Virus record (IMG/VR): IMGVR_UViG_3300044614_001923
DNA: 64,000 nt
Direction: 5' to 3' (one strand)
Source: a virus
Lineage: Duplodnaviria > Caudoviricetes
The notes beneath the pieces were generated by a model that saw only the letters and a list, made by a program, of their open reading frames with translations, searched no databases and was not told where the DNA came from. Position numbers and translations under genes: made by a program. Shown piece by piece: positions 307 to 44,678 of this stretch (positions within the stretch are counted from its first letter, which is position 1; each line of letters begins with the position of its first letter).

Positions 307-1572
307 CTATTTCTTCTTATACTTATTTATGAAATTCTTAATTTCTTTTGTTCCCGTCATTTTCATTGTATATTCACGATATGCATCCGTTCCAACTTCT
401 CTTTGGTCGGCAGGAACTCCAGATTTGTTAGTAAATCCACTTTGAATATTTCTTGTTTGAGGGACAAATGCTCCGTATGATACGGGTTTATGATCCTCTT
501 TATCTGCTGCTTTTTTAGATTCCACCACATCTTTAATCCAACATTTAAACATAATACTATCTTCAGTAACGCAAATCAAATAATTTGTTCCTCTACGAAT
601 AATACGTCCAACTAGTCCAGTATTAAGATTTTCAACAATATCTCCAATTCTAAAAATGTTTTCTTGGATATAATTTTCACGAAGGTTTTTCCAATCCAAC
701 TTAGGAGCAATTTCCCAAAGATTCCATCCCTCTTTAATATTCATTGCAGCACGAATGGTATTATAGAGTTCTTTTGCTTGTTTCTCATTGAATGTGGAAG
801 GAACTCCTTTTCTAAAGGTTTTAAAATCTCCTTCTGCTGCGGCCTTTCTTTGCTTAGATGCAGACATACCAGACACATCATCTTCAGAATCAGGATCCCT
901 TTCCCCAGCAGAACGAACTTCTAAATTATCAAATTGATAGAGTTTACCATTATAATTATTGGAAAGTTTTTCAAACTCATTAACTCTATCAGCACCACCT
1001 ACAATTCTTACGTTAGTATATCCATCCATATGTGCCTTTTTAAGAACATCGAAGATGGTACGATTTGCCTGATCATTTATAATTCTTTCACTATGCTGAG
1101 GAAACATTTGCCTCATAACAGAAACTTTAGTATCAGCATCTAATGGATTCTTTTTCTTATCCTGACTTCTTGATGGAACAATAATATAATCACCATCATC
1201 AGAAGATGTTGCTACGGTATTTAAAAGTTTTTCATGTCCAGTTGTTGGTGGATTGAACCGCCCAAAAGCAATAGTTAAAGTTCCTTTTGTTTTTGGTACT
1301 GGAGGTGGACCTTCCACTTGAGGTTCTTGCTGAGACTGAACTTCTTTTGGAATTTCTTGATCCTTTACTTTTTTTTCTTGAGGAGGGTCTTGCTTTCCAA
1401 TTTTTTGATTTTTATTATAAAACTTAAGTTTTCCACCCTCAGTCTTCGCTGTAAATTCTCCATTTTTATCGTACCATCCACCATGCCCATCTCCAGTTAA
1501 ACCGAGACGAGATGCTTGCTGAACAGCAAGAGACTTTGATGCTTCAGAAAGAAATTGTAAAAAACTTTTCAT
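307..1572 (-). CDS. Cytidyltransferase-like (HIGH-superfamily) nucleotidyltransferase with N-terminal CTS-like leader
   Basis: FGRFNPPTTGHEKL (TxGH motif) and GMSASK (KMSKS-like); start reassigned to ATG 1572 (MKSFLQFLSE), downstream of ATAAATA at 1593-1599. Confidence 0.8.
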   Translation of the reverse strand: MKSFLQFLSEASKSLAVQQASRLGLTGDGHGGWYDKNGEFTAKTEGGKLKFYNKNQKIGKQDPPQEKKVKDQEIPKEVQSQQEPQVEGPPPVPKTKGTLTIAFGRFNPPTTGHEKLLNTVATSSDDGDYIIVPSRSQDKKKNPLDADTKVSVMRQMFPQHSERIINDQANRTIFDVLKKAHMDGYTNVRIVGGADRVNEFEKLSNNYNGKLYQFDNLEVRSAGERDPDSEDDVSGMSASKQRKAAAEGDFKTFRKGVPSTFNEKQAKELYNTIRAAMNIKEGWNLWEIAPKLDWKNLRENYIQENIFRIGDIVENLNTGLVGRIIRRGTNYLICVTEDSIMFKCWIKDVVESKKAADKEDHKPVSYGAFVPQTRNIQSGFTNKSGVPADQREVGTDAYREYTMKMTGTKEIKNFINKYKKK

Positions 1573-31133: not shown

Positions 31134-31787
31134 TTATAGTGAATTTAAGAAGTCGTTGAAAAGATTAATCTTATTTTCTTCAAGTTGTTTTTGATCTACT
31201 AAACTATTGATTTTTTTATATGCTTGAGAAGCATACTTCTCACGAAGAATACCTCCATCCCATACCCATTCTTTACCTTCCATGATTCCCTGAACAAAAG
31301 CATCAGGTGCAGAAGGATCTGCAACAATATCTGCTGCAGTTGCAAGCATAAAGTCTTCACCGACTTCTTTATATCCTTCTCTATGATTTTCTTTCAGAGA
31401 TCCGATTCCCCGAGAAGATACGCCAAGAGTAACTCCGTCCTTGAGAAGTGACTCTGCAATTTTACCCATTGGAGTGGATAGAATTTGTGCTTTACCGATA
31501 AAATTATTTCCTTCACGATAGAGTTCAATAATTTTATGTGATACTCTATCCAGATTTATAGTTGGACCATCAGGATGTCCAAGTTCACCAAGAGCACGTC
31601 CTTTTTCAACATATTGTTCAGTATAACGCTTTACTTCACGTTCCATAATGGACATAGGATACATCCTTCCATTACGGTTAACACATTCTGCTTGAAGAAA
31701 AGGACCCTTAACGAAAAGTTTTTGTTGTTTTCCAGTTCCTTCTGTAAGAACTTCTACCTTTTCGATTTCTTCTCTGATTAGTTTCAT
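31134..31787 (-). CDS. gp21: Prohead protease gp21
   Basis: ALGELGHP, RVSH, GVSSRGIGS, DIVADPSAP. Confidence 0.96.
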   Translation of the reverse strand: MKLIREEIEKVEVLTEGTGKQQKLFVKGPFLQAECVNRNGRMYPMSIMEREVKRYTEQYVEKGRALGELGHPDGPTINLDRVSHKIIELYREGNNFIGKAQILSTPMGKIAESLLKDGVTLGVSSRGIGSLKENHREGYKEVGEDFMLATAADIVADPSAPDAFVQGIMEGKEWVWDGGILREKYASQAYKKINSLVDQKQLEENKINLFNDFLNSL

Positions 31788-31793
31788 TTTTTC

Positions 31794-32063
31794 TTAGTTA
31801 GTAAGTCCTACTTTAGCGGCTTTCACAGAAGCAGACGATGCCCAGATAACATATGATGGGGGTTTTTCTAAAAATTCTACAGTTGCATTTGGCATAGTAA
31901 ATGTTGCAGTGTCTGCTGCTCCAACTGTACTAGCAATACTAACTGTAGCTACACCACCAGATCCGTTATATAGTCTTACGCAAGTTGCGTCAGAAATACT
32001 TGAACCTGCTCCAGCACTTGTACCAAGAGCAACTTCAGTTGCTATTACCTTTGTCCTTTGCAT
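31794..32063 (-). CDS. Small hypothetical protein in head cluster
   Basis: 89-aa ORF; ATAAATA at 32089-95. Confidence 0.7.
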   Translation of the reverse strand: MQRTKVIATEVALGTSAGAGSSISDATCVRLYNGSGGVATVSIASTVGAADTATFTMPNATVEFLEKPPSYVIWASSASVKAAKVGLTN

Positions 32064-32115: not shown

Positions 32116-32307
32116 TTATTCCTCATCAATAATCTCTTCTTCTTCATCTCCCACATCTCCTGCAGGATCTCCAAAAAGTTCATTAGCAACTTCAGGTCTA
32201 AGACCATCAACTCTATCTGCTGCCTTTGCAAATAACATTTCTTTAATTTTATCGCTAATGCTTGATGGGGACTCATCAGCAATAATCATGTCCATAAGTT
32301 CGTCCAT
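32116..32307 (-). CDS. Small acidic protein, possibly gp67/68-like prohead core component
   Basis: Acidic ORF between gp20 and gp21; TATAAATA at 32336-43. Confidence 0.55.
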   Translation of the reverse strand: MDELMDMIIADESPSSISDKIKEMLFAKAADRVDGLRPEVANELFGDPAGDVGDEEEEIIDEE

Positions 32308-34728: not shown

Positions 34729-37236
34729 TTAAACTCTACCAGCCACTTCTTCAAAGCTGACTCCAGTTCTGGTAGCAACAAATGTTAGAGTGACATAGTT
34801 AATAGATTTAGCTGGTTTCAGATAAATGTCAGCTCTAAATTCATTATTATCAATAATGTCAGGAGTGTTATTTGTTTCATCACAAACAACTAGGAATCCG
34901 TAGAGACCTCTCTTTGCCTGAACCTCACGTAGATATGGTTCAACAATGTTGATGAAGTTAGCTCTTGTAATTTCATCGTTGAGTTCGAAGAGTTGTGCTT
35001 GTGCGCTTCTCTCCAGTGCTTGCTCAACAGTGAGGAACAGTCTACGGACGTTAATTCTATCAAATGCTGATGCATAACCAAGACCTGTTTTATCGCCAAA
35101 GAGAAGAGTTCCAATTCCTGGTTGAGTAACAATTGCGTTGATTCTCTGAGGATAGAGTTGATCTCTTTGTGCCTTATTTGGATTATATGCAAGTTTAATT
35201 GCATTATTCAGAATACCTCTTTGCTGTCCTGCAGGTGAGAACCAAGGATATGCAAAGATTGAAGTTCTTACGCAAAGACCAGCAATGTCTCCATTTGTTG
35301 GAATATAGCGGAACTTATTATTGAATCTATCATAAGTGTACTTATAACCAGTATCAAATACTGCATATGATGATGATGGCATTGAACTATAGAATTCAAT
35401 GATATTATCTGTCTGAGTATCTGAGTTTGTAATGTCAACAACATCCGCCCTATGAGGAGAAATCATTGCCATGCAATCTTTTCTATCTTCAGCAATTGCA
35501 ATCAATTCTTGAGCTTTTGCTTGAGATTCAAACTTATTGCCAAGACCAGGACCCATGAGAAGATAATCTAGAGGTACATCATCTCTATTTTCAAATGTTC
35601 TATATGCACTGATAAGATCTCCTAGAGTTGCTGCAAGACCACCTTCGTTATTTTCTCCAGAATAATCTTTTCCACCACCTAAGGTATAGGAAACATTACC
35701 CATTACACTAAATGTAATGTCTTGTGCTGGTTGGTTCCAAAGTTGATCAGCAAGGTCTCCTAAGGTGTACTGAGCACCTCCAGAAGCTCCCATTTCTACA
35801 GTATCACTGAATCCAGATCTATATACTGTTTCAGAAACAACTCCGTTATCTGATGGGTTATCTCCAGCATAAAGATATCTTGAATAACGTGCAAGGTAAT
35901 CCTTCCACCAAATTTTCTGAGGAGCATTTACTGCTGATGTTGCATCACTTGCTTTAGATAGAGAAACATGCTTCTCGAGAAGAGCTCCTTTAATTCCAGT
36001 TACTGTTCCTAAATCATCAATAACTGCAATATGCATTGCATCATTTCTAGAGTTTCTCTCTTGTGCCCAACGGGTTGTTGTTGGTTTTGGTGCAATAGAT
36101 CTCCAGAGAATATTTGTATTCTGAAGTCTAATATACTGCTGATCATACCAGTCTTTTGCACTTTCAATATTGAAAGTTGAAATTCCACTAATTGAAGTGG
36201 TTCCCTCTCCAACTTGTGTAAGAGTTACTCTGTTTCCTGGTCTAAATGCAGTTGTCTGATTCTTATCTGCATAGTTAATGAAGATCTCGGACGCTCCAAT
36301 AGCAATCTGACGAGTGAAACTTACTGCAATACCAGTTCTGATATTTGCAACAGTTGATCCAATAGTGACAAATGTGCCACCAACAGAAACAACAGATGCT
36401 GATCCATAAAAATCAGATGTTGTTGATCCAAGACCAGCAACGGAAATTACATCATTTGGAGATACATCAAGAGTTGAATTTACATAAACTCTATTTGTTA
36501 CTCCAACTCCAGATGCTCCCTCATTATATGCAGTAGTAGTCTGTCTTACATTCTGAATATCAGTGTAAGGGTCTCTTACGCGGGATACAATCTTAACTTC
36601 AAGATCGGTTCTTTCTACAGTTGTTGTAATACCAGTAATGATTCCTTTGAGGACACCATCAAATGTAGCTGCTTGTCCTCTTCCTGGTAGTTTTTGATCT
36701 TCCAGTTTAAAACTAATTCCAGCTCCTACTGAAATTGCAACTCCAACCTGCCTGAGATTAGTAGTCTTGATTCCAATAATCTGATCTGCTTTATCGTCAA
36801 TAAAAGCAATTTTCAGATTATTTGCCCATGTTCCTGGGTTTTTAGCAACAAAGATGTAATCGGCAATATCGTCTGCCCAATTTGCATCATAATCTTCAAA
36901 GTTCTTGATGATTACATCATCAGTTCCAATTCCTGTGCTAATAGCGTTAGCATTGTTTAGGTTATCTCCAGAACATCTGGTAACCTTTAGAACGCCGCCA
37001 TATGAAAGGAAGGATGATGCGGTCATCCAAAATTCGTACTGACCATCTGTAGTTTGTGGTTCTCCAAATACATCAATCAGTTCACTTTCGGTTGTAATAT
37101 CTACTGGTTCTTCAACTGGACCTTTAGGGAAAGGTCCAGCAATAGCACCAATATTGTCAAGTACATTATCAGCTCTTCCTACAGTTAAATCAACCTCCCT
37201 GATTAGTACTCCAGGAGATAATTGAGGAGTCGCCAT
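34729..37236 (-). CDS. gp18: Tail sheath protein gp18
   Basis: SPGVLIREVD, PWFSPAG, FDRINVRRLF, IYLKPAKSINYVTLTF. Confidence 0.96.
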   Translation of the reverse strand: MATPQLSPGVLIREVDLTVGRADNVLDNIGAIAGPFPKGPVEEPVDITTESELIDVFGEPQTTDGQYEFWMTASSFLSYGGVLKVTRCSGDNLNNANAISTGIGTDDVIIKNFEDYDANWADDIADYIFVAKNPGTWANNLKIAFIDDKADQIIGIKTTNLRQVGVAISVGAGISFKLEDQKLPGRGQAATFDGVLKGIITGITTTVERTDLEVKIVSRVRDPYTDIQNVRQTTTAYNEGASGVGVTNRVYVNSTLDVSPNDVISVAGLGSTTSDFYGSASVVSVGGTFVTIGSTVANIRTGIAVSFTRQIAIGASEIFINYADKNQTTAFRPGNRVTLTQVGEGTTSISGISTFNIESAKDWYDQQYIRLQNTNILWRSIAPKPTTTRWAQERNSRNDAMHIAVIDDLGTVTGIKGALLEKHVSLSKASDATSAVNAPQKIWWKDYLARYSRYLYAGDNPSDNGVVSETVYRSGFSDTVEMGASGGAQYTLGDLADQLWNQPAQDITFSVMGNVSYTLGGGKDYSGENNEGGLAATLGDLISAYRTFENRDDVPLDYLLMGPGLGNKFESQAKAQELIAIAEDRKDCMAMISPHRADVVDITNSDTQTDNIIEFYSSMPSSSYAVFDTGYKYTYDRFNNKFRYIPTNGDIAGLCVRTSIFAYPWFSPAGQQRGILNNAIKLAYNPNKAQRDQLYPQRINAIVTQPGIGTLLFGDKTGLGYASAFDRINVRRLFLTVEQALERSAQAQLFELNDEITRANFINIVEPYLREVQAKRGLYGFLVVCDETNNTPDIIDNNEFRADIYLKPAKSINYVTLTFVATRTGVSFEEVAGRV

Positions 37237-37315: not shown

Positions 37316-37561
37316 TTACCAATCTGGATATTCCCAAACTGTGTTATCTAATGCTGATTTTTGTGGGTATAATTTTCTACTTTTTTTGATTCTTTTTATG
37401 GTACATTCTTTGCATTCATAAGAATATGATGAAGGAACAGATCCTCTATCTTTTCTAGTTCTATAAAAAGAGTCGATTAAATTTTTTATTTGACCGCAAG
37501 ATCTACACTTTCTATCGTTTAATAGAAGATGACCTAATCTTATTTGTCCATCTAAGTCCAT
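37316..37561 (-). CDS. Small CxxC...CxxC zinc-finger-like protein
   Basis: CRSC and CKEC; TAATG overlap with gp17 stop. Confidence 0.65.
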   Translation of the reverse strand: MDLDGQIRLGHLLLNDRKCRSCGQIKNLIDSFYRTRKDRGSVPSSYSYECKECTIKRIKKSRKLYPQKSALDNTVWEYPDW

Positions 37562-39207
37562 TAGACATAATCCCACATATAGGACATATCACCATATTCA
37601 TCAGAAAACCATCTGTCTCCATCAGAATCTACAAAACTAGAATTATCTAATCCATCAACAACAAAACCAAATGGTGACATATCTTGTTCTATTTGATTTT
37701 TTTGCTCTTCATACAATCTCTTTCTAATATCTTGATCAGTGAGTTCTTTAAAGTAATCTTGTGCAACTAGCCATGCATAAATTACAAGACACATTGCAAG
37801 GTCATCATTACATCCATCTTCAGCTTCAAATGAATTGTTTTTCTGTATAAAGGTTGTTAACTCTGCTATGATTTCATAATCATTAAAAATAAGTTTATCT
37901 TCCTCAATTAAAGTTTTTAAATTCAGTGAACCAACTTTTTTTACAGTTTTGGACATCTTAACGCCAAGTTGCGTTTTCTTACCAGAAAATCCTTGCCCAA
38001 CAATTTGACCAGCTCTACCTCTCATAGAACACATGAGGACATTTTGATATTCTAAATCATAATGCAATAAAGATGCTACCTGATCACCTATATCATTTAC
38101 CTCACAAAGAATGTATGCGCGGTTATAATTTTTTGCTACTTCATAAATGATATTTGGAAATAGCATTGGTTTAATCTCATTGTTTCTATATTTTGCGACA
38201 ACTTTATGTGGAAATTCAGTTATATCAACTACGACAAAAGCTGAATAGTCCTCACTGACTCCTCTTGCAACGTCAACTGTAATAATATAGTCGTGTCCTT
38301 GAACCACGTCCTCATAAACATCTAGACCAGCATTCCTTTTTATTGGATTATCATACACTAAATTTCTCAATTTGCTTGGCGCAATTAGTGTATCGACTGA
38401 TCCTAAGAATTCACATTCAAACTCAATTTTGAATTGTTGTTCTGAAGTGTTGTTAATTGTTTGTTCTTTCCAGGCAGCGTCTCTTCCAGGAACTTCTGAC
38501 CAATGAACATCAGTTGGTACGTATTCATTTTTTCCCTTTTCCGCATCATGCCACATTCGGTAGAAATGATTCATACCGTGTGGCGTAGATACTACAATAA
38601 CCTTAGTATTTTTACCAGATGAAATTGTTGGGTATACGGATGCAAAGAAATCGTCAGCAATATGATTTGGAACGAAAGCAAATTCGTCCAAGAACAAGAT
38701 ATTAAATGACATACCTCTTACTGCTGATGCAGAAGTTGAAGCAGCAAGTATTTTTGATCCGTTTTCTAATTCAATATTTCCTTTATTCCAAGCAATAATT
38801 CCCTGCTGCATCCATTTTGGTAAATTTTCATATGCTGTTGCAAGTCTACTTAAAAGTTCTCTAGCAGTTGCAGCCTTGTTTGCAAGAATACCAATATTGA
38901 CACTATCGTTAAAAATTAGATAATGTAAGAGATAAGAAACTACAGTTGTAGATTTGCCTGTCTGGCGAGGCATTTTACAAATGTTAAATCTATGTTTATG
39001 AAAGTTATTAATTAACTTTTCTTGAAAGTGGTATGGATGAAATTGAGTTAATCCCTCATCAAGAGAAACAATTTTAATATAATTATTTGCAAAATAAACT
39101 GGATCATCTTTACACTTAACAAATTCTAAAATTTGTTCCTGACTAAATTCAATTTGAGTATTTGCTCTTTTTAAATTTGGATTGCCAAGATATACATTAT
39201 CAGTCAT
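37561..39207 (-). CDS. gp17: Terminase large subunit gp17
   Basis: PRQTGKS, LFLDEFAF, VSTPHG, DDLAM; no intein-size insertion. Confidence 0.97.
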   Translation of the reverse strand: MTDNVYLGNPNLKRANTQIEFSQEQILEFVKCKDDPVYFANNYIKIVSLDEGLTQFHPYHFQEKLINNFHKHRFNICKMPRQTGKSTTVVSYLLHYLIFNDSVNIGILANKAATARELLSRLATAYENLPKWMQQGIIAWNKGNIELENGSKILAASTSASAVRGMSFNILFLDEFAFVPNHIADDFFASVYPTISSGKNTKVIVVSTPHGMNHFYRMWHDAEKGKNEYVPTDVHWSEVPGRDAAWKEQTINNTSEQQFKIEFECEFLGSVDTLIAPSKLRNLVYDNPIKRNAGLDVYEDVVQGHDYIITVDVARGVSEDYSAFVVVDITEFPHKVVAKYRNNEIKPMLFPNIIYEVAKNYNRAYILCEVNDIGDQVASLLHYDLEYQNVLMCSMRGRAGQIVGQGFSGKKTQLGVKMSKTVKKVGSLNLKTLIEEDKLIFNDYEIIAELTTFIQKNNSFEAEDGCNDDLAMCLVIYAWLVAQDYFKELTDQDIRKRLYEEQKNQIEQDMSPFGFVVDGLDNSSFVDSDGDRWFSDEYGDMSYMWDYV

Positions 39208-39212
39208 AAAAG

Positions 39213-40487
39213 TTACCTTTGTTCAATCCAGTTCAATACTGCAAGTGCTTTTTTGTTGGTATTTGGAGATGCACAAGCAAGTGTATAAGTGTCACTAATT
39301 GTTCCAATGCCACTTCTACCTAACTGAAGTGCTGCTTTAATATCAAGATCAACTAACGCACCACTACCATTAATTACAAAACCACTCAAAAGATCACTTC
39401 CACCAGATACTGCAGTTTGAGTGATATTATACTGCATAAAGGAGTTTGGATCGGGATGATTTACCCAAGTTCCTCCAGTCAGTGTTGCATTTTGTAGAAG
39501 TTGCCAATAAACATTCGTATTGTCATCAGTTGCTGCCTGTAATGATCTCAAGAGCATTACACCAGTTAGATTATTGGATTTTAAACGAATGCTTATAATT
39601 GGATAGAATGTATTTGCTGATGCCATCGTTGTCCCTGTGATGGGATTTGATATGCTCAAAAGAGTTCCGAGTTTTTCTGGTTCTCCTTCCTGAATAAGAG
39701 AATTAGAACCCTGATACATGTAATGAGTTCCTGCAACACCAGTTACATTTTCTATCTCAAGTCTAATAGGCAAGAAAGGAGTGGAACACCAAACTCCTGG
39801 GTTGGTATTTGCATTATCAAAAGTATGAGATGCAACAGTCTCATTCTTCATTAACCAAGCAAATTGAATTATACCTGCACCATACCATTCATAATTGATG
39901 GAAATCATTTGTTGTTTTGTTGGATCTGCAGTTACTCCAGTCCACCCATTACCATCAAACTTCTCACCATTCCATTCATCTCTGTATACTCTGGTTTCTG
40001 TAACAATTCCAGTTACACTACTACGGAGCACATAAGAATATGTTCCTCCATCATCCTCAAAATAAACACCGTTGTTTTCATCAAACAATCCAAATCTTCT
40101 ACGAATACCTACTTTTGGTTGTTCTAGACGAACTGCGAATGCGAGTGTTGCACCTCTGCCAGGAATGTATCTCATCACATTCTTGGTTTGGCGAATTACT
40201 TTGCTTCCTGTAGTGGAACCAACTTGCATTATAACATTACTGGCATTTGCATTAAATGTTGCAGTTCCAACTCCAACTACTCTTTCATCCCATACATCAG
40301 TCTCTTTACCATACTGGAAGGTGTTGAAGAATACTGTTTGATAAGGAGATATTTTGAATCTGTTGTTGTTGGTAAATTGAGGTCTCCAGTCTGTCTGGTT
40401 TCCCCAGTGATCTGCGATATTATAAACTTCAAATAAAGATCTTTCTTGATTTAGAAAGTCTTGTTCGTTCTTATTCCATATAGCCAT
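39213..40487 (-). CDS. Hypothetical beta-rich protein, likely virion-associated
   Basis: 424-aa ORF, Thr/Gly/aromatic-rich, in the late cluster between gp16 and gp17. Confidence 0.6.
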   Translation of the reverse strand: MAIWNKNEQDFLNQERSLFEVYNIADHWGNQTDWRPQFTNNNRFKISPYQTVFFNTFQYGKETDVWDERVVGVGTATFNANASNVIMQVGSTTGSKVIRQTKNVMRYIPGRGATLAFAVRLEQPKVGIRRRFGLFDENNGVYFEDDGGTYSYVLRSSVTGIVTETRVYRDEWNGEKFDGNGWTGVTADPTKQQMISINYEWYGAGIIQFAWLMKNETVASHTFDNANTNPGVWCSTPFLPIRLEIENVTGVAGTHYMYQGSNSLIQEGEPEKLGTLLSISNPITGTTMASANTFYPIISIRLKSNNLTGVMLLRSLQAATDDNTNVYWQLLQNATLTGGTWVNHPDPNSFMQYNITQTAVSGGSDLLSGFVINGSGALVDLDIKAALQLGRSGIGTISDTYTLACASPNTNKKALAVLNWIEQR

Positions 40488-40490
40488 AAA

Positions 40491-40808
40491 TTAAATCCAC
40501 TCTAATTTTCCTGGATGATATCGTTTTGCGTTTTGAATATTAAAATTCTTTTCTTCCGCAGGATAGATATTATGGACAATTGCTCCAGGATAGTTTCCTT
40601 GAAGTTGTTCTCCTAATTCCTGTTTAGATGGAACTCCTGTTTTTGTGACAAGTTCAAGTCTATATATGCTGCCTTGCCACATAACATCGGCAACGTAACT
40701 TTCCCCCACTTGCTGAGGTTGTTCTGGTTGTGAGTTGATGTAGAGATTTCCGTTGAAATCTCCTGAGATGTTTACTGACTCAGATAGAAACTGTTTGAAA
40801 CTTTTCAT
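40491..40808 (-). CDS. Small protein with CTS-like leader (MKSFKQFLSE)
   Basis: Start reassigned to ATG 40808; body similar to a module of the 759-aa ORF. Confidence 0.7.
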   Translation of the reverse strand: MKSFKQFLSESVNISGDFNGNLYINSQPEQPQQVGESYVADVMWQGSIYRLELVTKTGVPSKQELGEQLQGNYPGAIVHNIYPAEEKNFNIQNAKRYHPGKLEWI

Positions 40809-40813
40809 TTTAA

Positions 40814-43093
40814 TCACCACTTAACCTTGTTTGCCCAGTATGCTGCAGACATTGGACCTTTATCAATGTTTTTTGCATGTCTTGTTTTAAATCTTTTACG
40901 TCGACTTGCATATTCTTTAGATTCTCCTTCTTTTTTGGGGGAACCTTTTACACCTCTTTGCCCAAAACGAATAATTTTTTCTTTTCCATCTGAACATGCC
41001 TTGACAACATGAGATTTGCCAGTCAGAGAATCACCAACTGCTTGTGCTTTTGGTTTATTGCATTTCATTTTATCTTTATCAATTGATTCTGCAAATGCTT
41101 GGAGAATTTGCTCGCCTGGCATAATATTATCTGCTTTAAAGTAAGTTACCTTACCTCCTGGATAGATCTTATTAATTTGATCTTGAACTTCCCCTCTATT
41201 AGGCATTTTTGAATTTGGGAAGAAGATCTTTAATGAGTAAAAAGATCCTTTCCAGGAAACATAAACTAATAAAAGATTTCCGCGTGCAGATTTTAGGGAT
41301 ACTGCCTCTTCAATTTGCTCTCCCATTGGTTTCACATAATTTTTATTTGGGCCTGGTTTTGCTGCACTTCCTCCAGCTGGTTTTTCATGATGGTCTTCTC
41401 CACAGGTTATGCAAGGAGACTGTCCACACTTACAATTACACTCTTTCTTTTCTTCTTTTACTAGAGGATCTGGTTTGATAAGATCTACAAATTCTACGAA
41501 AGGATTTCCATTTGCATCAGTAACAACAACACTTTCATTTGCAGATTTCCATCCACCACCTGCTTTCTTATATTCTTTAGCAGCCCAACCATTTGCATAA
41601 GCAGAAGGATATACATCAAACTTTGCTTTTGCCTTTGCCTTCATCTTAGACCAAAGTGAAGGATTAGTGGGAACGTTCTTTTCATTAAGAACTTCTGCTT
41701 CCATCTCAAGTAAAATTTTATCTACTAAAGAAGGTTCATAACCAGCATTAACGACTCCTGTTTTAATGCTTCCTTTTGCTAATGATGGTCCAGTTGTTTT
41801 TCTTTCCGCTGCTGCTCTCTCACCCTCAGTAGATCCTCTCTGAGCAAGAGTTCTAATCTTAGCAGCACGATTTTGTTCTCTATGCTTTTTGGGATCAATT
41901 GCCGCTGGAATTGCACTTTCAGGAACACAATTAGGAACTTCTTTCTTACCCTTCTTCTTCATCCCCACTTGCTTGTAACCTTTCCAACACGCTTCTTCAA
42001 TCTCGGATTCCCCGCTTTCAAGATAGTCCGCTGCAGTATCAATATAATCTGCCGCTTTGGTAATCTTTGATTGCACCCATGCCTCTAAATCACCTTCGCC
42101 TTTATTAACTTTATTCTTCAGTCTCGAAACTGCTTTAGAAATAGTTTCAAGTTCAGATCTTGCCATTGAATATTCTTCATCTTTAATTGAAACTTTATCC
42201 CATGCTTTTTCGCCATAAGCACATTCTGAACGGATTTCTCTCTTATCACAAAGCGGACAATATCTTTCCTCTTCACCACTCATATCATGCTCATGTTCTT
42301 CTGTTCTTGCTGCTCTCATATCCTGCCTTGCTCTCATCACATCATCTCTAGAAATAGCACCCCTAGTCCATGGATCCTCTGCAGCGGCTTTAACTGCTTG
42401 TGATCTTGTTAATGGTTTTGGTTTTACCGCATTTGGTTTATCCTCACCATACTTCGCAGTGGATTTTTTAGATCTGGTTGGTACATAAACCTTCCCTCCA
42501 CTACCAGTTGTTCCAATCTGCTTTCTTCCTTTTATTTTATCAACTAGATCACCGACTAAACCTTCTTCAATATTATTAGAAGACATGATTGGTTTTCCTC
42601 CCTTTCCTTTGCGATTTGCTACAGGATCTGCTTTTCTTTTTCTTTTTACTGAAGCAGCAATCTCACTCTTAGACATTTTTTCTGCCTTTTCATTTGAAAG
42701 ACATTTTGGTTTTGGTTCTCCAGGTTCACGCGCACATGGTCCAATTGCTTCACCTTTAGTGTTATATCTCTTCCAATTTCCTTCGGGATGATCTTTATCA
42801 AACCAGTTTCTTAGATCTTCATATGCTATTTTCTTTTTACTATGTTTAATTTCCCCTTTTTGTTTAGCAATCAATTTATTTGAATATTCCTGAGCATGGG
42901 ATGTGCTAGAAACATTCTCATCTGGAATTCCTTTTTTAGCAGTATCATAAATGTCAATATCACCATCAGCATCACGATCAACATACTGAACTGTTGCATG
43001 ATGAACCAACTGCTTTAAATCCAGATTTGGATCCAGCTGATGTTGTTTTTTTGGAAGATGGGGTGTTTTGTGAGAAAATTTTGGAGTTTTCAT
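40814..43093 (-). CDS. Multi-module basic/Cys-containing protein, candidate gp21-processed polyprotein
   Basis: 759 aa of short Lys-rich modules separated by Glu sites; ATAAATA at 43202-08. Confidence 0.7.
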   Translation of the reverse strand: MKTPKFSHKTPHLPKKQHQLDPNLDLKQLVHHATVQYVDRDADGDIDIYDTAKKGIPDENVSSTSHAQEYSNKLIAKQKGEIKHSKKKIAYEDLRNWFDKDHPEGNWKRYNTKGEAIGPCAREPGEPKPKCLSNEKAEKMSKSEIAASVKRKRKADPVANRKGKGGKPIMSSNNIEEGLVGDLVDKIKGRKQIGTTGSGGKVYVPTRSKKSTAKYGEDKPNAVKPKPLTRSQAVKAAAEDPWTRGAISRDDVMRARQDMRAARTEEHEHDMSGEEERYCPLCDKREIRSECAYGEKAWDKVSIKDEEYSMARSELETISKAVSRLKNKVNKGEGDLEAWVQSKITKAADYIDTAADYLESGESEIEEACWKGYKQVGMKKKGKKEVPNCVPESAIPAAIDPKKHREQNRAAKIRTLAQRGSTEGERAAAERKTTGPSLAKGSIKTGVVNAGYEPSLVDKILLEMEAEVLNEKNVPTNPSLWSKMKAKAKAKFDVYPSAYANGWAAKEYKKAGGGWKSANESVVVTDANGNPFVEFVDLIKPDPLVKEEKKECNCKCGQSPCITCGEDHHEKPAGGSAAKPGPNKNYVKPMGEQIEEAVSLKSARGNLLLVYVSWKGSFYSLKIFFPNSKMPNRGEVQDQINKIYPGGKVTYFKADNIMPGEQILQAFAESIDKDKMKCNKPKAQAVGDSLTGKSHVVKACSDGKEKIIRFGQRGVKGSPKKEGESKEYASRRKRFKTRHAKNIDKGPMSAAYWANKVKW

Positions 43094-43245
43094 TCAACTG
43101 GTTTTGATTTTGTCTTTTCACCTTTTGCTCTCTTTTTTCTCGCAGCGCAATGGGCACGTTGAGAAAATCCTTTTGGATTTGAGCAATCAATACTCTTTTT
43201 ATATTTATTAGACCAATCTTCTTGAAATTGTTTAAATGTCTTCAT
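43090..43245 (-). CDS. Small basic protein (51 aa, MKTFKQFQEDWSNKYKKSIDCSNPKGFSQRAHCAARKKR...)
   Basis: Translated by hand; overlaps gp16 stop; ATGA overlap with 759-aa ORF; not in ORF track. Confidence 0.75.
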   Translation of the reverse strand: MKTFKQFQEDWSNKYKKSIDCSNPKGFSQRAHCAARKKRAKGEKTKSKPVE

Positions 43246-43681
43246 TTTTTGTTTGTTGTTTAAGAAGTTTTGCTAATTCTGCAGTTGAACCAACAAATAA
43301 TGCATTTGTTACATTAGTTGGACCTTTTGATTGCTTTTCTTCTTCAATATCTTTTAGTTTTTTCTGTAAATCCATTAACTTATCTGTAGCATCTGCTACA
43401 TTTTTAATTAATTGTCCAGCAACTTCATATGCTCTGGGCATTTCACTTTCTTGAGCAAGTTCAAGAATTCCATTAATTGCCTCTTGACCTTTTTCTATTA
43501 AAGAATATAAATTACCTCTAGTATATTCATAGTCTTTTTTTATGTGATCAGATTCTGTAGACTTTGATATTTTTTCAATCTTCTCAACAGAAGTCTCAGA
43601 AACTTCCACTGGAGAAATTTCTGAAACCTCATCATTGGAAAGTCCAAATGTTTGATTTAGGCTGTCAAAATTTTTTTTCAT
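43232..43681 (-). CDS. gp16: Terminase small subunit gp16
   Basis: DYEYTRGNLYSLIEKG, PRAYEVAGQLIK, NALFVGSTAEL. Confidence 0.92.
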   Translation of the reverse strand: MKKNFDSLNQTFGLSNDEVSEISPVEVSETSVEKIEKISKSTESDHIKKDYEYTRGNLYSLIEKGQEAINGILELAQESEMPRAYEVAGQLIKNVADATDKLMDLQKKLKDIEEEKQSKGPTNVTNALFVGSTAELAKLLKQQTKNEDI

Positions 43682-43682
43682 A

Positions 43683-44678
43683 TCAGAAAGATGAATTGAA
43701 TCCAAAATCATCACCGTAACTTACAAGCGCATCATCAGCTGCTGTTATCTTATAAATTTGCGATCCAAGTAGATGATTTGTTATTCTTGTTCCATAAGAA
43801 CCTCTTGTAACATTCAATTTGTTTCCTGTTTTACTAGTTACAAATAATGTCTCATTGTCTATGGAAATGTATGATTTAACTGGAATATTTGTAGCATCGG
43901 ATACTTCAAAGACTGCATCTGAAATTTGAATATCTGTCTCTAGAACCGCAACAGTTTGATTTGCGAGTGAAGTAGTTGCTTTTGGTTCTGAAGTATAAGT
44001 AACATCTCTGTTTGTAGAATTTGCACCTCCAGAAAGATATCCAATAGAAACTTTTTTGATGATATCTTTTTCGACACCAGTTGCAATTGGGCCAAACAGA
44101 TAAGTTTTTGCATTGAACTTTAAAGTATAAATTAATGCTCTTCGAGTTGAAAAATCTCCCTCATAGTCATCTTCCATTGTAATACCTTCAAGGGTTATTG
44201 GAATATCTCTTTTTTCTCCAATAGTATCAAGTAAATCAACCGTAAGAGTATATGATGGTTGAAAATAAGGAACAATTTGTTCAATAATTTGCAACATATC
44301 ATCATTTAATTTTGTCATTATACTCATTTCAAATTGCATGGTGTATGGAACAGGCATGTATGCCTTTCTTAAATCACCTTCAGAAGTTTTTGAAATAAAT
44401 GTTTGAGTTGTTTGTAGTTTTCTAGAAACGTCATAAAATAATCCGTTAAATTCAAATGACATTCTTGGCAATGTAATTTGAACTGGATTGTTTAAATCAT
44501 CTGGAGACTCTCTAAGTCTTGATAAAAACTTTTGAGTGGGACCATATGCTAAAGGAACCTTAACAACTTCGACAACATTACCACTATTGTCTGTTTTCTT
44601 TATCTGTATATTATTAAATAAGGTTCCAAAAGTTACAATAGTTCTTCTTAGAGTCTCGTGATAAAAATATTCAAACAT
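43683..44678 (-). CDS. gp15: Tail sheath terminator gp15
   Basis: FGTLFNNI, VPLAYGP, LPRMSFE, QIVPYFQP. Confidence 0.92.
   Translation of the reverse strand: MFEYFYHETLRRTIVTFGTLFNNIQIKKTDNSGNVVEVVKVPLAYGPTQKFLSRLRESPDDLNNPVQITLPRMSFEFNGLFYDVSRKLQTTQTFISKTSEGDLRKAYMPVPYTMQFEMSIMTKLNDDMLQIIEQIVPYFQPSYTLTVDLLDTIGEKRDIPITLEGITMEDDYEGDFSTRRALIYTLKFNAKTYLFGPIATGVEKDIIKKVSIGYLSGGANSTNRDVTYTSEPKATTSLANQTVAVLETDIQISDAVFEVSDATNIPVKSYISIDNETLFVTSKTGNKLNVTRGSYGTRITNHLLGSQIYKITAADDALVSYGDDFGFNSSF

Follow-up and report, generated by a model that had tools for sequence, protein, structure and literature searches.

A 64,000-nucleotide stretch of viral DNA, IMG/VR record IMGVR_UViG_3300044614_001923 (Duplodnaviria; Caudoviricetes; hereafter the window), raises the question of why two small, unrelated proteins encoded between the terminase genes should begin with nearly the same nine or ten residues. 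Pfam and PHROG scans, together with BLAST comparisons against phage records, identify the region as the structural module of a T4-like cyanomyovirus, with all of its genes on the minus strand; the cultured phages closest to it, with approximately 70-75% DNA identity, infect Synechococcus, among them Sf-CH8, DSL-LC02, S-SCSM1 and Bellamy. An earlier note on this DNA had read the two leaders as T4-type capsid-targeting sequences (CTS) and the locus as a counterpart of the T4 internal-protein (ip) genes. The open reading frames (ORFs) for the two proteins, of 105 and 51 amino acids (aa), do lie where that note had placed them, on the minus strand and with the leaders it had reported, flanking a 759-aa modular ORF between gp16 and gp17. 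A leader of the same type opens a third gene of the window, and the features concerned are the following:

43232-43714, minus strand: gp16, small terminase subunit (Pfam/PHROG)
43090-43245, minus strand: 51-aa protein, leader MKTFKQFQE, no Pfam family
40814-43093, minus strand: 759-aa basic modular protein of the T4-GC119 type
40491-40808, minus strand: 105-aa protein, phrog_1742, leader MKSFKQFLSE (ORF and PHROG)
39213-40487, minus strand: 424-aa virion structural protein, phrog_1645 (PHROG)
37561-39207, minus strand: gp17, large terminase subunit and downstream bound of the cluster (Pfam/PHROG)
307-1572, minus strand: 421-aa cytidylyltransferase/NMNAT-like protein, T4-GC190, leader MKSFLQFLSE↓A (arrows mark known or predicted cuts)

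The best-supported reading, which we hold with moderate confidence, is that these leaders act as a T4-type CTS. The 105-aa and 51-aa proteins are accordingly presented here as what they probably are, cargo of head assembly, detection in virions having so far concerned other leader-bearing or neighboring families.

In T4, the CTS is the ten-mer MKTYQEFIAE (PMC8442874; Mullaney and Black 1996, reviewed in PMC9026906), in which residues 4 and 7 serve targeting and residues 8 and 10 serve processing, and the prohead protease gp21 cleaves at the motif L/I-x-E (PMC9026906). The N-termini of T4 IPII and IPIII, as read from the T4 record, both correspond to MKTYQEFIAE↓A. The leader of the 105-aa protein agrees with the T4-mapped positions, presenting F4, F7, L8 and E10 followed by a serine (L-S-E10↓S), and that of the 51-aa protein fits the gp21 site only partly, as F-Q-E9↓[D/E/S]. 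Both F4 and F7 are conserved across 120 relatives of the 105-aa protein and 76 relatives of the 51-aa protein.

The leader is also rare outside these genes. At the DNA level, the pattern M-K-x-F-x-Q-F has three matches in the window, always at the start of a minus-strand ORF (1572, 40808 and 43245), against an expectation of 0.04 ± 0.20 in shuffled versions of the window, none of which (0/100) reaches three. Similarly, the pattern M-K-x-[FY]-x-x-F-x-x-E is found in T4 DNA only in ipII, ipIII and the gene encoding the 54-aa gp61.1, and in four cyanophage genomes it identifies one gene apiece, with no match for a reversed-pattern control in either T4 or the four cyanophages. T4 gp61.1 (NC_000866 18966-19130, locus L175:367-531, minus strand) is a hypothetical protein with a CTS-type start, MKTFKEFIKE↓D, and is close in size to the 51-aa cyanophage protein. 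Among the papers searched, a single one, a T4 review, contains both "capsid targeting sequence" and "cyanophage"; the latter word appears there solely in a cited title, the review makes no connection between the two, and none emerged elsewhere in those papers.

Conservation of the leader was analyzed in all three families that carry it. The 105-aa ORF starts from its ATG as MKSFKQFLSES, and an alternative GTG upstream, at 40820, would extend it to 109 aa; the start lies at MKSF in 114 of 120 close homologs. Its family, phrog_1742, comprises more than 2000 relatives at 90% clustering and only 51 clusters at 50% identity, and all named records with a member are Synechococcus or Prochlorococcus phages. 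The expectation that the leader would persist as an N-terminal tag in homologs was borne out, since it is kept in all 120 close homologs of the 105-aa protein and in the diverged full-length members displayed. In this family position 8 is occupied by I, L or M, and all 21 aligned sequences have E10, including three fused forms in which it belongs to an internal site. In the cytidylyltransferase family, M1, K2 and F7 are invariant over 80 loci, position 8 is L or I in every one of them and E10 is present in 79. Codon tables reveal free synonymous variation within the leader, extending to both serine codon families, which argues for selection on the leader peptide and not on the underlying RNA.

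The fused forms are informative about the architecture of the signal. These relatives of the 105-aa protein (P0134, P0137 and P0138) carry 40-160 additional residues between leader and domain, with MKSF[KQ][EQ]F at the extreme N-terminus and V-N-E↓, L-G-E↓ or L-N-E↓ immediately before the start of the domain (SVNISGDFNG). Together with the internal copies described below, they suggest that targeting by the N-terminus can be uncoupled from the Glu site of cleavage.

The 51-aa ORF, which begins with MKTFKQFQEDW, shares its first 14 nucleotides with the end of gp16, an overlap that is identical in most of 76 related loci. At its other end, the stop codon and the ATG of the 759-aa gene overlap as ATGA. 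The relatives analyzed here are IMG/VR loci among the matches listed, where at least 568 of 600 listed stretches encode a relative and at least 76 full-length stand-alone copies are present; phage Bellamy annotates the gene as gene 122. Across the 76 copies the ratio of nonsynonymous to synonymous polymorphism (pN/pS) is 0.12 and variable sites are distributed 19/18/46 over the three codon positions, which together indicate a protein-coding gene under strong constraint. M1, K2, F7, E9, W11 and both cysteines are invariant in these copies. No match to the 51-aa peptide was obtained in Pfam at E-values up to 1 or in a PDB sequence search, and of the two small proteins combined, Pfam and PHROG scans recovered phrog_1742 only. 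The possibility that a programmed frameshift fuses the 51-aa ORF with the modular gene was rejected, as the offset at the junction varies (0 or -3) and there is no conserved slippery site.

The processing boundary of the 51-aa protein can be placed by reference to internal copies of its module, which display the pattern x-x-E↓[D/E/S]-W-[S/T] and hence locate the boundary after Glu9. In S-SM2 the module makes up the C-terminal portion of a 142-aa protein with a leader of its own (MKTLKQFLKE↓T), with an internal K-T-F-E-E-F-R-E↓S preceding the module, and in an IMG/VR modular protein an internal copy is flanked by V-S-E↓D and V-T-E↓D. The predicted mature peptide (residues 10-51) has 42 aa, an isoelectric point (pI) of 10.1, 13 Lys and Arg residues and two cysteines, Cys21 and Cys33. 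The earlier note's description of a very basic product with a cysteine pair is therefore sound, although its N-terminus has to be corrected, with the boundary after Glu9, to DWSNKYKK.

The 105-aa protein is predicted to be cut after Glu10 and, in its AlphaFold2 (AF2) model, is disordered up to about residue 33; residues 34-105 form a small beta-beta-alpha-beta domain with pLDDT above 85. The predicted mature product has 95 residues and a pI of 5.2. The domain has no significant match in the PDB, with a best Foldseek E-value of 0.27 (T7 Gp2) and a best Z of 4.2 in a wide VIA-align search, and a PDB profile search with the family returned nothing. A BFVD search with the domain returns only the same domain inside cyanophage modular proteins, and residues 612-662 of the neighboring 759-aa protein are a second copy of it (E 2e-5). 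In P0151, a 118-aa relative of the domain, a lipoprotein-type signal peptide (…LFSCKSG) takes the place of the phage leader.

The enzyme that a T4-type leader calls for is encoded in the same window. Its gp21 aligns with T4 gp21 at 42% identity, with His85 and Ser140, the catalytic residues of the T4 protease, among the invariant columns. The maturation site of the major capsid protein gp23, which T4 cleaves after Glu65, is likewise unchanged between T4 and the window phage, as F-L-T-E↓. The start of the S-SM2 142-aa protein (SSM2_108, L003:4695-5123), MKTLKQFLKE↓TPTNSVGNGGY, closely resembles the gp23 site of the window, FLTE↓TPTNAANGAAGGGGY. The resemblance between FLKE↓TPTN in this leader and FLTE↓TPTN in gp23 suggests that some leaders may copy the cleavage context of the capsid protein itself.

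Published virion proteomes of relatives provide evidence on other proteins of this group. In S-SM1 virions, the cytidylyltransferase family T4-GC190 accounts for 25 peptide counts and the modular family T4-GC119 for 13 (PMC3037559, Table S8), the latter assignment being based on the GenBank notes for SSM1_115 and SSM2_109. The S-SM1 ortholog of the cytidylyltransferase, SSM1_190, starts with MKKFSAFLNE and is the sole S-SM1 gene that fits the strict leader pattern. In S-SCSM1, mass spectrometry (MS) identified 45 virion proteins, an NMNAT-like enzyme among them, and its authors remark, with no explanation, that such enzymes recur in cyanophage virions (PMC9602691). The S-SCSM1 GenBank record labels both the modular ORF29 and the phrog_1645 ORF31 as "virion protein".

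Several observations weigh against the capsid-targeting reading, either as a whole or for one of the two proteins. The S-SCSM1 homolog of the 105-aa protein, ORF30 (82% identical), is labelled only "hypothetical protein" even though both flanking genes are flagged, a label that apparently reflects non-detection in the virions, as judged from the annotation; given that the mature 105-aa protein would yield good tryptic peptides, the missing flag makes an abundant, IP-like copy number unlikely. The mature 105-aa protein is moreover acidic, unlike the basic T4 IPs. In the 51-aa leader, the P3 residue is Phe and not Leu or Ile, and Asp occupies position 10 in about half (34/76) of the listed copies, a substitution that blocks processing in T4 IPIII (PMC9026906). 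The modular proteins add two further points. Among 57 of them, hydrophobic-x-Glu is 2.2-fold enriched at homology breakpoints, but the reversed E-x-hydrophobic motif is enriched to the same degree (2.3-fold) and any Glu 1.5-fold, so that these sites were rejected, as unspecific, as proof of polyprotein cleavage. In addition, several modules of the 759-aa protein are found in podoviruses and siphoviruses outside the T4-like phages, and those modules cannot depend on a gp21/CTS packaging route. The 759-aa protein is a chain of mini-modules with ten hydrophobic-x-Glu sites, five of which (177, 367, 392, 596 and 669) coincide with homology breakpoints. Its C-terminal module, residues 668-759 (phrog_7595), has counterparts of approximately 60% identity in Roseobacter podovirus SIO1, pelagiphages and cyanosiphoviruses, which shows that the mini-modules circulate well beyond the T4-like phages.

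Under the capsid-targeting reading, both small proteins would be made as late precursors whose first 9-10 residues, MK[ST]F[KQ][QE]F..E, would work like the T4 CTS and keep the precursor within the scaffolding core during closure of the gp23 shell around it. The gp21 protease would then cut after the Glu of hydrophobic-x-Glu, at L-S-E10↓S in the 105-aa protein and at F-Q-E9↓D in the 51-aa protein, and would free inside the head an acidic beta-beta-alpha-beta domain of 95 residues and a very basic peptide of 42 residues with a cysteine pair. After maturation these products might be retained, injected or expelled, and a function in the next host is conceivable. For the 51-aa peptide we lean towards a DNA-associated internal peptide, and for the 105-aa protein towards a component of the prohead core, or one present in the head in few copies, with a link to the 424-aa virion protein, as its usual gene position and apparent non-detection both fit such a role.

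The gene neighborhood of the two proteins bears directly on this assignment and on the idea of a dedicated locus. The remaining features of the structural module in the window are as follows:

31134-31787, minus strand: gp21 prohead protease
31794-32063, minus strand: 89-aa ORF, phrog_19805 (MQRTKVIATEV…), immediately ahead of gp21
32116-32307, minus strand: 63-aa acidic ORF, pI 4.05, phrog_14164, directly after the portal gene gp20
34729-37236, minus strand: gp18 (Pfam/PHROG/BLAST)
37316-37576, minus strand: endonuclease VII-like gene (Pfam/PHROG/BLAST)

The T4 late-promoter box TATAAATA does not occur between 37 and 44 kb, so the genes there are probably read through from the upstream structural genes.

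In the listed IMG/VR loci, the 51-aa ORF nearly always has gp16 immediately before it and a modular gene of 412-923 aa immediately after it, the common order being gp16, 51-aa gene, modular gene and gp17. The 105-aa gene, on the other hand, has a phrog_1645 gene (424-640 aa) as its direct downstream neighbor in all 56 evaluable loci, and the order portal, very acidic ORF of 50-63 aa, 105-aa gene, phrog_1645 gene, 88- or 183-aa ORF and gp21 is present in 47 of 61 related loci. Directly before gp21, relatives carry either an 89-aa ORF or a 183-aa ORF (MAHRPVG…). A single contig harbors both units, with gp16, the 51-aa gene, the modular gene and gp17 in one place and, apart from them, the portal gene, the acidic ORF, the 105-aa gene, a 455-aa gene, an ORF and gp21. 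In the window, the acidic ORF and the 89-aa ORF are still found between gp20 and gp21, and the 105-aa and 424-aa pair lies before gp17; as most relatives have the pair between portal and gp21, its juxtaposition with the 51-aa gene is secondary. As for the insertion between gp16 and gp17 that the earlier note had described, only this pair seems relocated, the 51-aa and modular genes being in their usual place. A dedicated ip-like locus is likewise not borne out, with the 51-aa gene tied to gp16 and the modular gene and the 105-aa gene tied to the 424-aa gene, usually between portal and gp21. What stands of the capsid-targeting interpretation is its reading of the leaders, through their sequence, their conservation and the virion proteomics of other proteins in relatives; the ip-like locus and, for the 105-aa protein, an abundant basic IP fall away.

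The constant pairing with the 424-aa gene opens an alternative for the 105-aa protein, namely that it is not head cargo at all and serves as assembly partner or chaperone of the 424-aa protein, which would be, for example, a fiber, decoration or receptor-binding component, the leader representing a shared N-terminal helix. The two genes are adjacent in all evaluable loci and move jointly between two genome positions, and the predicted structure of the 424-aa protein comprises two concanavalin A (ConA)/lectin-like beta-sandwich domains, typical of surface or receptor-binding proteins; the S-SCSM1 labels, which flag the partner and leave the 105-aa homolog unflagged, point the same way. Such a role, however, does not account for the fact that the 51-aa peptide and the cytidylyltransferase, both unrelated to the 105-aa protein, begin with the same leader, nor for the N-terminal leader of the fused forms with a separate hydrophobic-x-Glu before the domain. 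Furthermore, in most relatives the pair resides in the head-gene block near gp21, and the N-terminus of the 424-aa partner, whose first 56 residues are disordered, contains an invariant L18-F19-E20, at which it too may be trimmed by gp21. Prediction of a complex between the two proteins gave a score of 0.00, which is no answer and constitutes evidence neither way. We consider a partner role outside the head unlikely.

Capsid targeting also has to be weighed against the possibility that the leader signals only cleavage by gp21 or marks a propeptide, or is left over from the shuffling of modules, with no targeting function and with prohead entry mediated by other contacts or not taking place. 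In favor of this view, internal copies of both modules have x-x-Glu boundaries without MK..F..F, and modular proteins detected in virions lack such a leader at their own N-termini. Yet M1, K2, F4 and F7 precede the determinants of cleavage and, in three families, equal the Glu in conservation; targeting in T4 requires these residues, and in the fused forms they occupy the extreme N-terminus, far from the internal site. A leader devoid of targeting function is hence quite improbable. Under the capsid-targeting reading, since both modules recur in neighboring modular proteins and are bounded there by similar x-x-Glu sites, the stand-alone genes would be single-module versions of these chains.

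Comparison with known systems situates the two proteins relative to T4. They share with IPII and IPIII a ten-residue leader, M-K-[ST]-[FY]-x-x-F-[LI]-x-E, followed by a small residue, as well as small size and late character, a gp21-type protease with a conserved L-x-E site in gp23, and the use of the same leader on unrelated cargo. They differ from them in that the similarity seen is confined to the leader, that the mature 105-aa protein is acidic and that the cyanophage genes are strongly conserved and lie within structural operons. That the two are true analogues of the T4 IPs, which would be abundant, stay in the head, enter the host with the DNA and act against host defenses such as restriction enzymes, is very unlikely: the strong leader similarity to IPII and IPIII, the basic character of the mature 51-aa peptide and a weak resemblance of the 105-aa domain to small phage inhibitors (T7 Gp2, Z 3.9 and the Foldseek match cited above; BFVD entries named "RNA polymerase inhibitor", E ~0.05) speak for it, but beyond the leader neither protein resembles the mature parts of IPII and IPIII when compared by eye, the fold matches fall below any meaningful threshold, the 105-aa homolog is unflagged in the S-SCSM1 virion proteome, and both small genes are strongly conserved where T4-type IP genes are described as not highly conserved (PMC9026906). 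For inhibition of restriction, as suggested by analogy in the earlier note, we found nothing in support.

The T4 core proteins gp67 and gp68 offer a second comparison. T4 has these genes at the portal-to-gp21 position, where most relatives have the 105-aa gene after a small, very acidic ORF, an arrangement absent from the window. In T4, gp21 cleaves the core proteins, of which gp67 has an acidic tail, and most of their material leaves the head, a fate that would fit the missing flag of the 105-aa homolog in S-SCSM1. Against this likeness, no homology to gp67 was detectable and cyanophage heads are isometric. The 63-aa acidic ORF is conserved in relatives, as determined by alignment, and it and T4 gp67 both match phrog_683 weakly (E ~1e-3), but as a gp67 homolog it is unsupported (BLASTP E 52, hhalign probability 1%). 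The 105-aa protein belongs to a different PHROG family from T4 gp68, and reviews state that cyanophages lack both gp67 and gp68 (PMC2984593, PMC1079782). A third comparison concerns T4 Alt and the cyanophage virion NMNAT/cytidylyltransferase proteins (S-SM1 GC190 and S-SCSM1 ORF91), which are carried in the particle after N-terminal processing. The cyanophage enzymes have the same leader as both small proteins; they are far larger, whereas the small proteins have no recognizable catalytic domain. Modular virion proteins of the T4-GC119/DUF6321 type in cyanomyoviruses, finally, contain the modules of which both small proteins are stand-alone copies, and the N-terminal leader is present on those copies and absent from the modular proteins.

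A more ambitious proposal is that T4-like cyanophages, although reviews portray them as devoid of prohead-core and internal proteins, run a T4-style tag and protease system that loads a conserved kit of small proteins, including the basic 42-residue peptide with its cysteine pair, whose gene adjoins the terminase in hundreds of contigs from ocean phages, and the acidic domain encoded in the gp67/gp68 slot, the latter being delivered with the DNA to a host target for which the transcription machinery would be a candidate given the faint T7 Gp2-like fold. In this full form we regard the proposal as decidedly doubtful.

T4-like cyanomyoviruses are among the most abundant viruses of the ocean, and most of their small genes have no assigned role. 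CTS-bearing cargo is known from T4, and the 105-aa and 51-aa proteins are new candidates of this type, which nominates two very widespread small proteins as candidate head cargo. If the leaders do function as proposed, the address tag would allow the protein cargo of the head to be predicted from sequence by a simple rule, and would explain why an NMNAT/cytidylyltransferase-like enzyme is found repeatedly in cyanophage virion proteomes.

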